Virus genome (UHGV): UHGV-0353144
Origin: a virus
Direction: 5' to 3' (one strand)
Length of the DNA: 13,630 bases
Part shown: positions 1 to 6,740 of the stretch, one piece after another
Layout of the letters: each line of letters starts with the position of its first letter
How positions within the stretch are numbered: the first letter of the stretch is position 1
Notes under the pieces: model-generated
Database searches by the model: none
Seen by the model: the letters and a program-made list of their open reading frames with translations, nothing else
Told to the model about the DNA's origin: nothing
Program-made: the position numbers and the translations under genes

Positions 1-716
1 GCCCACATCAGTGGCTGACGTCGCGCCCCCATCCCGGTAAGCATCGTGGTGTAAAGCGCATCGGTGGCGTGCTCGTGATATTCATCCACCACCGCACAGT
101 GGGGTGATGAACCATCACCGGGGTTACCGATCAGCGGTTCAAACCGCGCGCCATCCTCCGGACGATTCATGTTTGAGGCGTTAACCTCAATCCCGAACGC
201 TTCCGTCAGCATGGGTGTGCGTTTACACATCAGTCGCGCCGGGCGAAAGACTTCCCATGCCTGTTTCTCCGTCGTGGCACCGGAATACACTTCCGCGCCG
301 AACTCGTTATCACAGGCAAAACAATACAGGGCGACACCGGCAGAGATTGCTGATTTGCCGTTCTTACGGGGGATTTCGGTATACACCTCCCGGAAGCGGC
401 GCAGCCGGGAGCCTTTATTGACCCAGCCAAACGCGCAGCAGATCACAAAGAGCTGCCACGGCTCCAGCGTGATGGGCATCCTCTTGAATGCCCACTCACC
501 CTTGGTGTGCGGCAACAGCTGAATAAATTTGGCGGCCCGTTCAGCCAGGTCCTTGTCGAAGCGGTAACGAAACGACTTACTTTTTTCCGCCATCAGGTCA
601 TCAAGATGGCGCTGGCAGGCCTGAATCACAAACTGGCAGACCACAATCTTTCCGCGCACGACATCCCGGGCATACTGATTGGCAGCATTTACGTTGGGGT
701 AAGATTTCCGGCTCAT
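1..716 (-). CDS. terminase large subunit, N-terminal ~238 codons (gene continues past the window start)
   Basis: Minus-strand frame from ATG at 716 is open to position 1; I checked every codon in that frame by hand and found no stop. Translation begins [29 protein letters not shown] and contains the P-loop-like motif EIPRKNGKS seen in HK97-type large terminases. ATGA overlap with the stop of the upstream small-subunit gene. Absent from the ORF track because it has no stop in the window. Confidence 0.8.
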
Positions 717-1207
717 GATTCGATAATTTTCAGAAACGGGTTAGTGGCTTTCTTCTGCCCCGCCAGGCCAATCAGACGCTGGCGGCTGCTGGGGTCGAGT
801 CCGAGCATTGCCCCCGTGCTGCTCATCTCGGACTCCTGTTCTTTCTTGGCGGTCAGCTCCGGATTTTTGACCATACCGCCCATTGCACCGGTGATGGTGT
901 TGCCCTGGCTGGCAATATTTTTCACGGCACGTCGCCAGAACTCATAGGCTACGCACCACCGCTCAAGCACCGCGAGGTCAGTCACGCACAGCAGGCCCTG
1001 ACCGCAGAGTTCTTTGGTTGTCAGTTGCCACATGATCGTGGCGAGAGGGAGATTTTCTTCTGCGAACCACTCCGGTGGCTCAACGCCTTTGATGGGCGTA
1101 AAAACAGGTTCATCTTTGTTCAGGGCTCGCTTGCCGGGGTTTCCGGCCAGCGCCTTGCGCGCCGTTGGCTTGGGGCGACGCCCGGAACGCCCCGCCGTTC
1201 CAGCCAT
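713..1207 (-). CDS. terminase small subunit (HK97-like packaging module)
   Basis: ORF-track ORF 713..1216 starts at GTG; the ATG at 1207 has a GGAG Shine-Dalgarno about 8 nt upstream. Basic N-terminus [18 protein letters not shown]. Sits between the HNH gene and the large terminase. Confidence 0.7.
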
Positions 1208-1257
1208 ATGCGGCACTCCTGGTTAAATTTCATTTTTCGCGGGTATAAAAAAACGAT

Positions 1258-1306
1258 GGGGCGGGCAGTCCGGAAGACGTCAGGTCACAGGGATTTGACC
1301 CGCCCC
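1258..1306. repeat. GC-rich inverted repeat GGGGCGGG (1258-1265) / CCCGCCCC (1299-1306); candidate cos/packaging site
   Basis: Perfect 8-bp inverted repeat in the 115-nt HNH-TerS intergenic gap, followed toward TerS by an A/T-rich stretch. HK97-type phages place cos between the HNH gene and terminase small subunit. Confidence 0.3.
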
Positions 1307-1332
1307 TCCCCTCTGGCAGTGGGAACTGGTTC

Positions 1333-1683
1333 TTACTTCAACCGTTCACGGGCCGTCTTCGCCTTATGACACGGCCAGCACAGACTCTGCAGATTACTGT
1401 CGGCATCAGTGCCGCCATGCGCTTTAGGGATGATGTGGTCAACGGTTTTCGCTTCACGCACCACACCGGCACGCAGGCACAACTGGCACAGTCCTTTGTC
1501 ACGCTTCAACACACGCACGCGGATAACATCCCACTTCGAACCATAACCGCGCTGGTGACGGGACTGACCTGGCTTATATTGCGTCCAGCCTTCGCTTTTG
1601 TGGCTTTCACAATAGCCTGACGGATCTGTGGTGGTATGGCGGCAACCGCGAACACGGCAGGCTTTTGGGATTCGTGGCGGCAT
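1333..1683 (-). CDS. HNH endonuclease (terminase-associated)
   Basis: 116-aa ORF with Cys-rich N-terminus (CRVRGCRHTT...YCESH) and the HNH core DHIIPKAHGGTDADSNLQSLCWPCH. Lies immediately upstream of the terminase genes, as in HK97 gp74. Confidence 0.9.
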   Translation of the reverse strand: MPPRIPKACRVRGCRHTTTDPSGYCESHKSEGWTQYKPGQSRHQRGYGSKWDVIRVRVLKRDKGLCQLCLRAGVVREAKTVDHIIPKAHGGTDADSNLQSLCWPCHKAKTARERLK

Positions 1684-2036: not shown

Positions 2037-2294
2037 CTACTTCGCTTTTGCTTCCGCTCGCTTACGCCGGCGCTCTTCTTTCCTCTCGGCTTTTGCCATG
2101 TCCATGAATGCCTGCATGATCGAGTTCCGCATCATGTAGCTAACAAAGTGATGATTGACACAGCCGTTGAGGCGCAGCTGCTCGCCAAACTCATCCACCG
2201 AGGCCAATGCTTCCATCATGCCCTTCTCGCCTTTCATGAACTCTGAGAAGTCGCGCCCCGCTCTGGAGGCGCATTCAATGACACGATCACTCAT
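2037..2294 (-). CDS. hypothetical protein (85 aa), translationally coupled to the upstream KilA-N gene
   Basis: ORF-track ORF 2037..2294. Its ATG overlaps the stop of the KilA-N ORF (ATGA at 2291-2294). Lys/Arg/Glu-rich C-terminal tail (AKAERKEERRRKRAEAKAK). No family recognised. Confidence 0.5.
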   Translation of the reverse strand: MSDRVIECASRAGRDFSEFMKGEKGMMEALASVDEFGEQLRLNGCVNHHFVSYMMRNSIMQAFMDMAKAERKEERRRKRAEAKAK

Positions 2295-2788
2295 CCCGGA
2301 AGCCCGGGGATCGTAATCTGCAGCTGGTTAGCCAGGGAGTTAATCTCAGCGACCAACACTGGCTTCGTATAGCGCCATGCCGCCAGCCCTTGTCCGCAGA
2401 AGCTCGCCATGTCTTTCTTCTGGTCAAACTCATGACATTTCATGTTGAGCTGCGCACTTAAGCTGTTGCGATGCTGAAGTTCTCCAGTGAAGTAGTCATC
2501 GAGGACTTTATAGGCCGCGTACTTGAACCCGGGGTTTAACCAAGCCGCATAATCGTAAGCAACAAACTTCCCGCCATATGTTCCACCGTGTACACCGCGC
2601 TCAGTAAAAACCACAGATTCGTGGTTTTTCTCCAGCTCGGCTAAGAACTCTTTGGTCTGCTTGTTTCGCAGGTAGTGGTACGGAGATTCAGATTCACTTT
2701 TACCACTGGCTTTCCACATATCAGTGAGGCAGATCATTCCTGATTCATCAACACGGATCGGTGTATTAAAAAGCGTGATTGCTTTCAT
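2291..2788 (-). CDS. KilA-N (APSES-like) domain protein
   Basis: ORF-track ORF 2291..2824 begins at a GTG with no SD. The internal ATG at 2788 has an AAGG SD and gives N-terminus MKAITLFNTPIRVDESGMICLTDMWKASGK, which resembles the KilA-N DNA-binding domain from memory. Start assignment is uncertain. Confidence 0.6.
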   Translation of the reverse strand: MKAITLFNTPIRVDESGMICLTDMWKASGKSESESPYHYLRNKQTKEFLAELEKNHESVVFTERGVHGGTYGGKFVAYDYAAWLNPGFKYAAYKVLDDYFTGELQHRNSLSAQLNMKCHEFDQKKDMASFCGQGLAAWRYTKPVLVAEINSLANQLQITIPGLPG

Positions 2789-2930
2789 AGCGTCTTTACC
2801 TTTTAGAAAGTGAGCCTGTCTCACAGAAAAGCCGCCCGAGAGAGGTCGCCACCTATAACGGCATTTCTCAGGCTCGCTTACTGAAAGGCTCTCGTTAATA
2901 TGCGCGTGAGATGCGCGTTTACTGCGGACA

Positions 2931-6061: not shown

Positions 6062-6453
6062 GCGGCCTCCAGTAGCTCTGTAATCATTGGCAAACTCCCG
6101 CATGTTTCAGTCACAACCAACACAAGCATTCCACCTTTAATCGCCTGATAGCGCTTGATGCGCATATCGTCTATCTGACCGTCATCCAGCCAGAAGCCCG
6201 CACTGGTGAGTGCGTCAAAAACGGCTTTGGGCAGATTGTCCAAATCTCGTTTGCGGTTATCGGGAGGTGCTGCGTGGATGGTTATTCTGATGCGAGGTGT
6301 GATTTTGATGTCTAGCTGTTGTTGCTGGATTATTTCGATTACTTCTTTTCGGTATCTCTCCCCCCAGTCGCTGATGTAGTGGATCCCTCTTGAGTGTCGC
6401 CAATATCGGTTGTTTGAAGGAGGCCACGGCAATTTTATTCGGTAGGTTTTCAT
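6058..6453 (-). CDS. rusA: RusA-type Holliday junction resolvase
   Basis: 131-aa product MKTYRIKLPWPPSNNRYWRHSRG...RDLDNLPKAVFDALTSAGFWLDDGQI matches the RusA family signature by recall. Confidence 0.85.
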   Translation of the reverse strand: MKTYRIKLPWPPSNNRYWRHSRGIHYISDWGERYRKEVIEIIQQQQLDIKITPRIRITIHAAPPDNRKRDLDNLPKAVFDALTSAGFWLDDGQIDDMRIKRYQAIKGGMLVLVVTETCGSLPMITELLEAA

Positions 6454-6740
6454 GACTTAATCTTCCCCTCCTTCAGCAGTATCGCCTGCGTCCTGATCAC
6501 GCCTTCGAGGTGGTAAAGTCTGGCGTCTTTGTTGTCGAGGTTATGGGTGCGTCGGTCGATTTCATCGTGACACGCGCTACAAGCCCATGCGCCGATCAGG
6601 TCGTCAGGCTTCATTCCCGTTCCGCAAATTCCAGCCATCCGGTAATGTGCCAGAACTGTAGTTTCAGGGTTGCCATTGCATACGCCGTAAATACGTACCT
6701 GGCATTCTCTGCCGCGTGCTTCTTTGCGTAGGTTAGCCAT
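6450..6740 (-). CDS. YbcO-like protein (DUF1364 family, putative nuclease)
   Basis: 96-aa product with RGRECQVRIYGVCNGNPETTVLAH and CSACHDEIDRRTH motifs; resembles E. coli DLP12 YbcO from memory. Adjacent to rusA as in DLP12/82-type nin regions. Confidence 0.6.
   Translation of the reverse strand: MANLRKEARGRECQVRIYGVCNGNPETTVLAHYRMAGICGTGMKPDDLIGAWACSACHDEIDRRTHNLDNKDARLYHLEGVIRTQAILLKEGKIKS

Follow-up and report, generated by a model that had tools for sequence, protein, structure and literature searches.

The HNH endonuclease gene and the gene for the terminase small subunit (TerS) at one end of this viral sequence are separated by a short intergenic region, which raises the question of whether the phage chromosome is cut here during packaging and, if so, which sequences in the region direct the cut. 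A preliminary description had proposed a cos site between the two genes, with a GC-rich 8-bp inverted repeat as its cue. We analysed the whole 13,630-nt stretch, called the window in the following. Its similarity to phages with mapped chromosome ends makes it very probable that a lambdoid prophage with a head-packaging module of the SfV/SfI/phiP27 type (HNH, P27-family TerS and the large subunit, TerL) has its cos site at 1225-1311. The cos feature in the window is thus already known and ordinary, as the cut has been mapped in the near-identical phage SfI.

The packaging genes and the intergenic spacer

The genes and sequence elements of the region are as follows, with signed positions counted from the predicted minus-strand nick.

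1-716, minus strand: TerL, N-terminal ATPase part (PF03354, E=1e-20); the gene runs past the window edge
713-1207, minus strand: TerS, P27 family, 164 aa (PF05119 Terminase_4, E=4e-21)
1216-1220, minus strand: TerS ribosome-binding site AGGAG, 8 nt upstream of the ATG at 1207
1225-1253, minus strand: A/T-rich block TTTTTTTATACCCGCGAAAAATGAAATTT (T7-AT-ACCCGCG-A5-TG-AAATTT), +5 to +33, predicted TerS-binding site (cosB equivalent)
1233-1244, minus strand: core of the A/T-rich block, ACCCGCGAAAAA (ACCCGCG and A-tract), +14 to +25, analogue of the HK97 site
1258-1267, minus strand: cohesive-end sequence (cosN equivalent) 5'-TGCCCGCCCC-3', identical to the SfI 10-nt gap
1268-1274, minus strand: TCCGGAC, with '...GAC' directly 5' of the cohesive end in the alignment, context of the predicted plus-strand nick (1267/1268)
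1275-1291, minus strand: spacer between G-box and cleavage region, variable in sequence and nearly constant in length (~17 nt)
1292-1311, minus strand: G-box with TCAAATC, GGGGAGGGGCGGGTCAAATC, -54 to -35, holding the right repeat arm (1299-1306)
1333-1683, minus strand: HNH endonuclease gene, 116 aa (PF01844, E=2e-16)

The order HNH, TerS, TerL, with all three genes on the minus strand at this window end, is that of the SfV, SfI and phiP27 records. The HNH protein is the accessory nuclease of HK97-like cos packaging modules; among solved structures the HNH endonuclease of phage GVE2 (5H0M, E=7e-12) is closest to it, and an HNH endonuclease is annotated at the same place in the SfV and SfI records. 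TerS is 98-99% identical to TerS of SfIV and SfV. It has 665 homologues at E<=1e-5, and the named ones among the matches listed are all called 'phage terminase small subunit P27 family'. Only 238 aa of the TerL N-terminus fall inside the window, and these gave a weak phmmer match to the HK97 TerL structure 6Z6D (E=1.2e-3) in addition to the Pfam TerL_ATPase domain. The SfV and SfI records begin TerS at the ATG equivalent to window position 1207. Because TerS starts at this ATG, the HNH-TerS spacer runs from 1208 to 1332 (125 nt). The preliminary description had given a 115-nt intergenic region from 1217, which does lie between the two genes, but its left boundary was taken from a GTG open reading frame start at 1216 and has to be moved.

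The proposed site therefore lies between HNH and a P27-family TerS gene and upstream of TerL, the position of cos in SfV, SfI and phiP27. An HNH gene adjoining the terminase genes with cos in between is also the layout described for HK97 (PMC13595911).

The probable cohesive end and geometry of the cut

In megablast searches of phage records, the spacer region was ~97-100% identical to SfI, SfV, SfII and SfIV, and identity over the spacer and its flanks was 96.9-99.4% for these phages and for Salmonella phage 118970_sal3. More distant matches came from ST64B, Klebsiella phages and the Stx2e phage phiP27, whose record has a 'cos-site' feature under the match. The Shigella phages SfI, SfV, SfII and SfIV share the HNH-cos-TerS position and the identical 10-mer TGCCCGCCCC, and from the G-box to the start codon of TerS the window departs from SfI at just two positions. 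Elsewhere in the window, in contrast, the genes (lysis, Q, nin, replication and immunity) form a different mosaic. For many E. coli prophages the match begins only at about 1733.

Three further sets of sequences were compared. The first was drawn from 80 IMG/VR loci whose TerS is near-identical (99-100%), which gave 51 distinct upstream regions; it thus records variation within the family rather than a deep comparison. The second was chosen by TerS similarity or as archetype, independently of any DNA motif, and contained phiP27, phiE125 and phiBtTUL1a, Mcat29, Kp4885-3, VW-6S and HK97. The third consisted of 28 hits in one-genome-per-species contigs to a pattern requiring the G-box and CCGCGAAA, so that both boxes are conserved there by construction.

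The SfI report describes run-off sequencing of the virion DNA termini and comparison with the prophage, which gave a 10-nt gap, 5'-TGCCCGCCCC-3', that was concluded to be the cos site (PMC3636060). Positions 1258-1267 on the minus strand equal this 10-mer exactly and consist of the left repeat arm and two more bases. The SfI record itself breaks at the mapped 10-mer, ending ...TTCCGGACTGCCCGCCCC and beginning GTCGTTTTTTTATACCCGCG..., and cos has been reported to be identical in SfI, SfII, SfV and SfIV (PMC3851460). In the same alignment column, the phiP27 record has a 10-nt misc_feature 'cos-site', CGCCCGCCCC, with one base different, the phiE125 record ends precisely with the 10-mer CGCCCGCTTC, and the end of the HK97 record aligns as well. 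The placement of cos between HNH and TerS is thus upheld, by the SfI-mapped end and by the phiP27 feature. The bases around the predicted cut are conserved unevenly. GAC or TAC precedes the 10-mer in most aligned lineages (TGAC in HK97 and Kp4885-3, GGAC in phiE125 and phiP27), with Mcat29 and three genome hits differing, and the 10-mer starts with YGCC in most lineages while its 3' half varies (TGCCCGCCCC, CGCCCGCTTC, CGCCGCCAAA, CGCCGCCAGT, TGCCACCTTG and others).

The preliminary description had held that the nick positions are unreadable from the sequence; homology to the SfI-mapped end nevertheless allows them to be predicted. Terminase would cut concatemeric DNA at the 10-bp TGCCCGCCCC (minus strand, 1258-1267), with nicks at 1258/1257 on the minus strand and at 1267/1268 on the plus strand, to give ends with 10-nt 3' overhangs. 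The virion chromosome would start with ATCGTTTTTTT... just upstream of TerS, its left end at 1257 reading toward TerS, and would finish just downstream of HNH with its right end at 1258-1267.

We considered it unlikely that the site is a cos with another cut geometry, such as 5' overhangs or nicks displaced by a few bases. The SfV record begins TCCGGACTGCCCGCCCCATCG... (TCCGGAC...), 7 nt upstream of the SfI-mapped 10-mer, so that the end assignments published within the SfV/SfI family do not agree fully, and the available part of the SfI report states no polarity (PMC3636060). However, 10 nt are missing from both outward run-off reads, where 5' overhangs would have given an overlap, and because of this we infer recessed 5' ends, that is 3' overhangs, for the SfI group. 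This polarity agrees with the explicit 10-base 3' extension 5'-CGCCCGCTTC-3' of phiE125 and phi644-2 (PMC2920897) and the 10-nt 3' overhang of HK97 (PMC11331095; also a figure legend in PMC9410871), which fall in the same column, and phiP27 marks the same 10 nt. Headful (pac) packaging, with the spacer merely an intergenic region with a ribosome-binding site, is hardly credible. Nothing specific speaks for it, although some P27-family or HK97-like terminases are uncharacterised. The SfI report describes a linear genome that has defined ends with a 10-nt gap, and explicitly sets this phage apart from the pac phages Sf6 and SfX (PMC3636060); the virion DNA of SfIV has identical, specific ends (PMC3851460); HNH-associated terminase modules are of the cos type in HK97; and satellite-like islands hold the 85-bp block alone. 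Packaging from the window would on this evidence be of the cos type with 3' overhangs.

The inverted repeat

The repeat finder returned the perfect 8-bp inverted repeat as it had been described, GGGGCGGG at 1258-1265 and CCCGCCCC at 1299-1306, with 100% complementarity and 33 nt between them. Among 1000 mononucleotide shuffles of the 125-nt spacer, 6.8% held a perfect inverted repeat of at least 8 bp, and the complementarity of the G-box to the downstream segment in the window had P=0.05. Taken alone, the inverted repeat is within chance expectation (P about 0.05-0.07) and not statistically unusual. The whole block, by contrast, is conserved among relatives to a degree that far exceeds chance.

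The complementarity of the two arms does not follow this conservation. Several relatives whose box reads GGGGGAGG or GGGGGTAG have TGCCCGCCCC or CGCCCGCCCC all the same (L035, L066, L071, L077 and the L006 island), and relatives with GGGGCGGG are found with non-complementary 10-mers (CGCCGCTTAG, CGCCGCCAGT, TGCCACCTTG and others, in Xenorhabdus, Providencia and Kp4885-3). HK97 has no inverted repeat between its G-box and its end. In 26 lineage representatives, the longest complement of the box in the following 38 nt had a mean of 5.77 nt, near the composition expectation of 5.31 nt from matched shuffles, and an 8-nt complement was reached only by the window group (window, phiP27 and L097) and by one unrelated metagenome-assembled genome (L104). 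Because complementarity is not kept in relatives, the repeat arms appear to be parts of two separately conserved elements that are complementary by chance here. The alignments assign the left arm to the cohesive end and the right arm to the G-box, and indicate that the repeat itself is not a recognition element. As a cue to cos the repeat was in part a coincidence: one arm is the cohesive end, but the repeat is no hallmark of such sites, whose elements persist in relatives without complementarity.

The repeat could in principle act as a hairpin or cruciform, as a terminator or attenuator between the lysis/HNH and head genes, or as a symmetric protein site. On the transcribed strand a T7 run comes 4 nt after the 3' arm CCCGCCCC, the predicted fold pairs both arms, and in the Xenorhabdus relatives a canonical terminator-like hairpin with a T-run, including a compensatory change, overlaps the predicted cleavage site. 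In the window, however, a rho-independent terminator, with its G+C-rich stem, 3-8-nt loop and T-run no more than 2 nt away, is not formed, since the arms enclose a 33-nt loop and the T-run begins 4 nt past the 3' arm. A scan detected no terminator-like site in 1000-2300 and no promoter-like site in the spacer, and no Rfam family matched anywhere in the window. The single-strand folds of the spacer were unexceptional (z=-1.17 as DNA, z=-1.69 as RNA). With the terminator scan, the fold z-scores, the Rfam search and the unconserved complementarity all against it, the hairpin or terminator reading was rejected, and a function of the repeat as such is very improbable.

Elements flanking the cut and their distribution

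In gene orientation, the site reads G-box with TCAAATC, a spacer of ~17 nt, ...GAC, the 10-mer, a short T-rich stretch, an A/C-CCGCGAAA box with A/T sequence, and the TerS ribosome-binding site. In anchored alignments the flanking G-box, the GAC, the T-run and the ACCCGCGAAA box are conserved in register. The 1275-1291 spacer occurs in at least five sequence variants of the same length or one nt different among the 51 upstream regions from the 80 IMG/VR loci.

The A/T-rich run toward TerS noted on the minus strand in the preliminary description is present at 1225-1253, and its core resembles the TerS site of HK97. That site, CTAACCCGATTTTTT at +15 to +29, was defined by EMSA and cryoEM and has a critical C:G pair followed by an A-tract (PMC11331095). 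An arginine of HK97 TerS contacts the C:G pair at position 21 and the essential A-tract is deformed inside the TerS channel; bound TerS stalls the motor with the cleavage site positioned in the nuclease of TerL, and cutting is stimulated by the HNH protein gp74 (PMC11331095; PMC9410871). The window core ACCCGCGAAAAA at +14 to +25 is like the HK97 site in position and in sequence type, and by this analogy ACCCGCG with A5 is the predicted TerS site. The core box is kept as CCCGCGAAA in phiP27, phiE125 and VW-6S and as ACCGCGAAA in Mcat29 and Kp4885-3; it does not vary among the IMG/VR relatives, and the orphan copies in satellites have it too.

The resemblance to HK97 does not extend to the TerS protein. 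The term 'HK97 type' used in the preliminary description fits the module layout and the cos architecture, but TerS is of the P27 family and has no detectable homology to HK97 gp1. Neither BLASTP nor hhalign profile comparison (probability 0.1%) related the P27-family TerS to gp1, and a search of PDB sequences with TerS gave no match. An AlphaFold2 model of TerS (pLDDT 80) had no significant fold match in the PDB; HK97 TerS (6Z6E) ranked 28 in the Foldseek search with a TM of 0.45 by target, the highest target-normalised TM listed, at a non-significant E=2.8. Homology of P27-family TerS to gp1 was rejected on these results.

On the other side of the cut, the G-box is better conserved than the cleavage sequence and occurs in phages of Escherichia, Klebsiella, Moraxella, Pseudomonas and Burkholderia. 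It is conserved in SfV, SfI, phiP27, Moraxella Mcat29, Klebsiella Kp4885-3 and Pseudomonas VW-6S and degenerate in phiE125, and six of the eight phage lineages that had been selected independently of the motif have it. In HK97, a run of nine G leads into TCAAATC, which occupies -41 to -35 exactly as in the window, and the comparison with HK97-family cos sequences suggested earlier brings this element as well as the 10-nt end into register. The G-box is absent from this position upstream of TerS in Vibrio phage H8 and Streptococcus phage Javan244 (P27-family TerS 49% and 34% identical), and the architecture is therefore not universal in phages with a P27-family TerS.

The phages with known ends share this anatomy to different degrees. 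phiP27, the type phage of the P27 TerS family, has the G-box GGGGAGGGGCGGGTCAAATC, GGAC, the 10-mer, the T-run and ACCCGCGAAA. It differs in the first base of the 10-mer (CGCCCGCCCC), has a spacer one nt longer, and is 82% identical in DNA over 77 nt and ~50% in TerS. The Burkholderia phages phiE125, phi644-2 and phi1026b have a P27-family TerS ~50% identical to that of the window, an HNH gene upstream, and 10-base 3' extensions CGCCCGCTTC that fall in the same column. Their end is preceded by GGAC and followed by CCCGCGAAATTAAAAATT, and a G-rich box is present upstream, whereas this G-box is degenerate (GGGGAGGGGGGAGAAAAAG), the last four overhang bases differ and an extra GC-rich hairpin lies upstream. 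HK97 (gp1 TerS, gp2 TerL, gp74 HNH) shares the order HNH, cos, TerS, TerL, the 10-nt end in the same column after GAC, and the G-run with TCAAATC, and its TerS site is of the ACCCG and A/T-tract type that is predicted for the window. Its cohesive end, CGCCGCCAAA, differs. The likeness to lambda (cosQ-cosN-cosB) is one of plan, with a termination element on the right end, a nicking site, and a TerS-binding region by the TerS gene (PMC6092414). There is no sequence similarity to lambda, which has 12-nt 5' overhangs, a Nu1-type TerS and no HNH, against predicted 10-nt 3' overhangs, a P27-family TerS and an HNH cofactor at the window site. The site is not a lambda-type cos, as TerS belongs to PF05119 and not to Nu1, and the DNA matches were to phages of the SfV, phiP27 and ST64B type and none to lambda.

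By analogy with lambda, the G-box is a predicted cis-acting cos subsite in the position of cosQ. We propose more tentatively that the G-box (GGGGAGGGG[C/G][G/A]GGTCAAATC, -54 to -35) could be an element in its own right, acting in cis and deeply conserved across HK97-like HNH-dependent cos sites, a reading that we hold possible but somewhat less than even. If it is a distinct element, it may serve as, for example, a cosQ-like termination or positioning signal, and its reader would be TerL, HNH or the portal-bound motor because the cut separates it from the side on which the HK97 TerS site was mapped. In a mechanism of this kind, TerS would bind ACCCGCG and the A-tract ~14-25 bp inside the left end, mark the site, and stall the motor for the terminal cut. 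TerL would make the staggered nicks, stimulated by the adjacent HNH protein; the dependence of packaging on HNH here is predicted by analogy with HK97. The G-box, at the right end of the packaged genome and placed like lambda cosQ, would be the third cis element, with TerL, HNH and the portal as candidate partners, and its DNA would already be inside or entering the motor at termination. Its fixed distance from the cut makes the G-box a testable candidate for the signal that ends packaging or positions the nuclease in the HK97 in vitro system. We found no description of the G-box in the searchable literature, a scope without the original HK97, SfV and phiP27 papers, and a literature search with the sequence motifs of the site returned unrelated papers only.

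The cos core (1225-1312; ~85 bp) was found in 1628 of 5426 complete E. coli genomes (30%). Some of these cores stand in satellite-like islands without neighbouring HNH and TerS genes, where the block from about 1228 to 1310 is 85-98% identical to the window. The G-box is kept in satellite-like islands, including cf-PICI-like elements, and in their orphan cos copies. Because the conserved block spans from G-box to A-tract in every island, the functional unit would be ~85 bp, and its presence in islands that lack flanking HNH and TerS genes is as expected of a cis-acting packaging signal. That satellites carry helper-type cos sites is an established principle (PMC6092414; see also PMC5052747), and the frequency of the core, satellite-like islands included, bears on which phages can package which satellites. 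Only the fixed-position G-box common to HK97 and the satellite-island copies without adjacent HNH and TerS genes go beyond the literature accessible to us, as leads and not as results.

Four islands illustrate the settings of the core. In L005 it lies at the clpS-proximal end of the island genes (protease-capsid fusion, DUF1441 protein, SSB and primase) and is 97.6% identical to 1228-1310, while the islands that hold it in L006 and L125 encode a PerC regulator and have replication genes of the primase type. In L124 the core stands at the end of an island whose gene content, in our reading of the RefSeq annotation, is that of a capsid-forming PICI. This island has its own HNH, TerS and TerL, and its TerS is 36% identical to that of the window in a 90-aa local alignment and has a much shorter N-terminus.

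A G-rich box at a fixed distance from the cohesive end

The packaging site carries a G-run followed by TCAAATC, a box whose position relative to the cohesive end is constant (-54 to -35). This G-box is found at the following loci.

Window 1292-1311, G-box of the cos core
L090, G-box at the right end of HK97
L093, L094 and L126, G-boxes of further relatives

At its fixed distance the box is present in HK97, phiP27, Moraxella Mcat29, Klebsiella Kp4885-3 and Pseudomonas VW-6S, and the cleavage sequence is less conserved than the box itself. The G-box is shared although at least the HK97 TerS has no detectable relation to the P27-family TerS of the window. A description of this box was not found in the accessible literature.

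In the Xenorhabdus relatives, the predicted cleavage site is held in the loop of a hairpin at two prophage loci.

L101:7416-7441, minus strand, terminator-like hairpin of a Xenorhabdus prophage
L116:1340-1365, minus strand, terminator-like hairpin of a Xenorhabdus prophage

The hairpin has a canonical terminator-like form, with a 9-bp stem, an 8-nt loop and T7, and comparison of two Xenorhabdus species revealed a compensatory change in it (GCCCC...GGGGC vs GACCC...GGGTC). The structure may act as a terminator, or alternatively as a symmetric nuclease site.

Record ends and physical ends

Database records of the SfV/SfI phage group are linearised at differing points within the same spacer. The SfV record (L001) starts 7 nt upstream of the 10-mer mapped in SfI, as compared with the SfI end (L004). 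The ST64B match stops at the position corresponding to window 1223, and for SfII the match points to a record that begins near window 1332. In this group, the end of a record is unsafe as a proxy for a physical end. Pseudomonas phage VW-6S (MF975720) has ~64 nt common to both of its record ends (L126:1-64 and L128:1-64), the G-box included; these shared ends look like the assembly overlap of a circularised contig and not a true terminal repeat.

Orphan cos copies in E. coli islands

Copies of the cos core were also located in E. coli chromosomes, in islands of two types.

L005:9001-9083, orphan cos core, E. coli NZ_CP115376, first type
L124:10001-10083, orphan cos core, E. coli NZ_CP024240, first type
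L006:9001-9104, orphan cos core, E. coli NZ_CP028746, second type
L125:10001-10087, orphan cos core, E. coli NZ_CP062855, second type

The cores of the first type are 94-98% identical to window 1228-1310, carry the 10-mer TGCCAGCCCC and have no directly adjoining HNH or TerS gene. In the second type the identity of the core is ~85%, the G-box reads GGGGAGGGGGTAG and the 10-mer is intact. Among 60 evenly spaced E. coli records, with orphan type assigned from match extent and identity, the best match was of one or the other type in about one quarter.

Each first-type core lies at one end of a satellite-like island, and the two islands have in common a 93-aa protein of unknown function encoded beside cos (83% identity). 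The L005 island encodes a protease-capsid fusion, DUF1441, SSB and a primase. By its gene content, the L124 island corresponds to a capsid-forming PICI. It carries an HNH, TerS and TerL of its own, with cos following TerL instead of separating HNH from TerS. The second island type carries genes for a PerC-family regulator, a pRiA4b ORF-3 family protein and a 'phage DNA ejection protein', together with primase-type replication genes (TOPRIM/DUF927 in L006, DUF5906 in L125).

Gene neighbourhood of the packaging module

Upstream of HNH in gene orientation, the ~350 nt that separate it from the next gene (window ~1684-2036) contain no ORF of at least 50 aa, and position 1733 is the start of many matches between E. 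coli prophages and the remainder of the window. This suggests a mosaic joint that would divide the HNH-cos-terminase module from the lysis and regulatory module. Three further genes were noted.

2037-2294, minus strand, phrog_875 protein of unknown function
2291-2824, minus strand, Rha-like/phrog_129 transcriptional regulator
6450-6740, minus strand, second annotated HNH endonuclease (phrog_131, 96 aa)

The phrog_875 and Rha-like regulator genes (2037-2824) are placed between the Rz spanin and HNH genes, within what is usually the late operon. The phrog_131 HNH gene is located outside the packaging module, in the nin region, where it is flanked by an Ant-like antirepressor and RusA.
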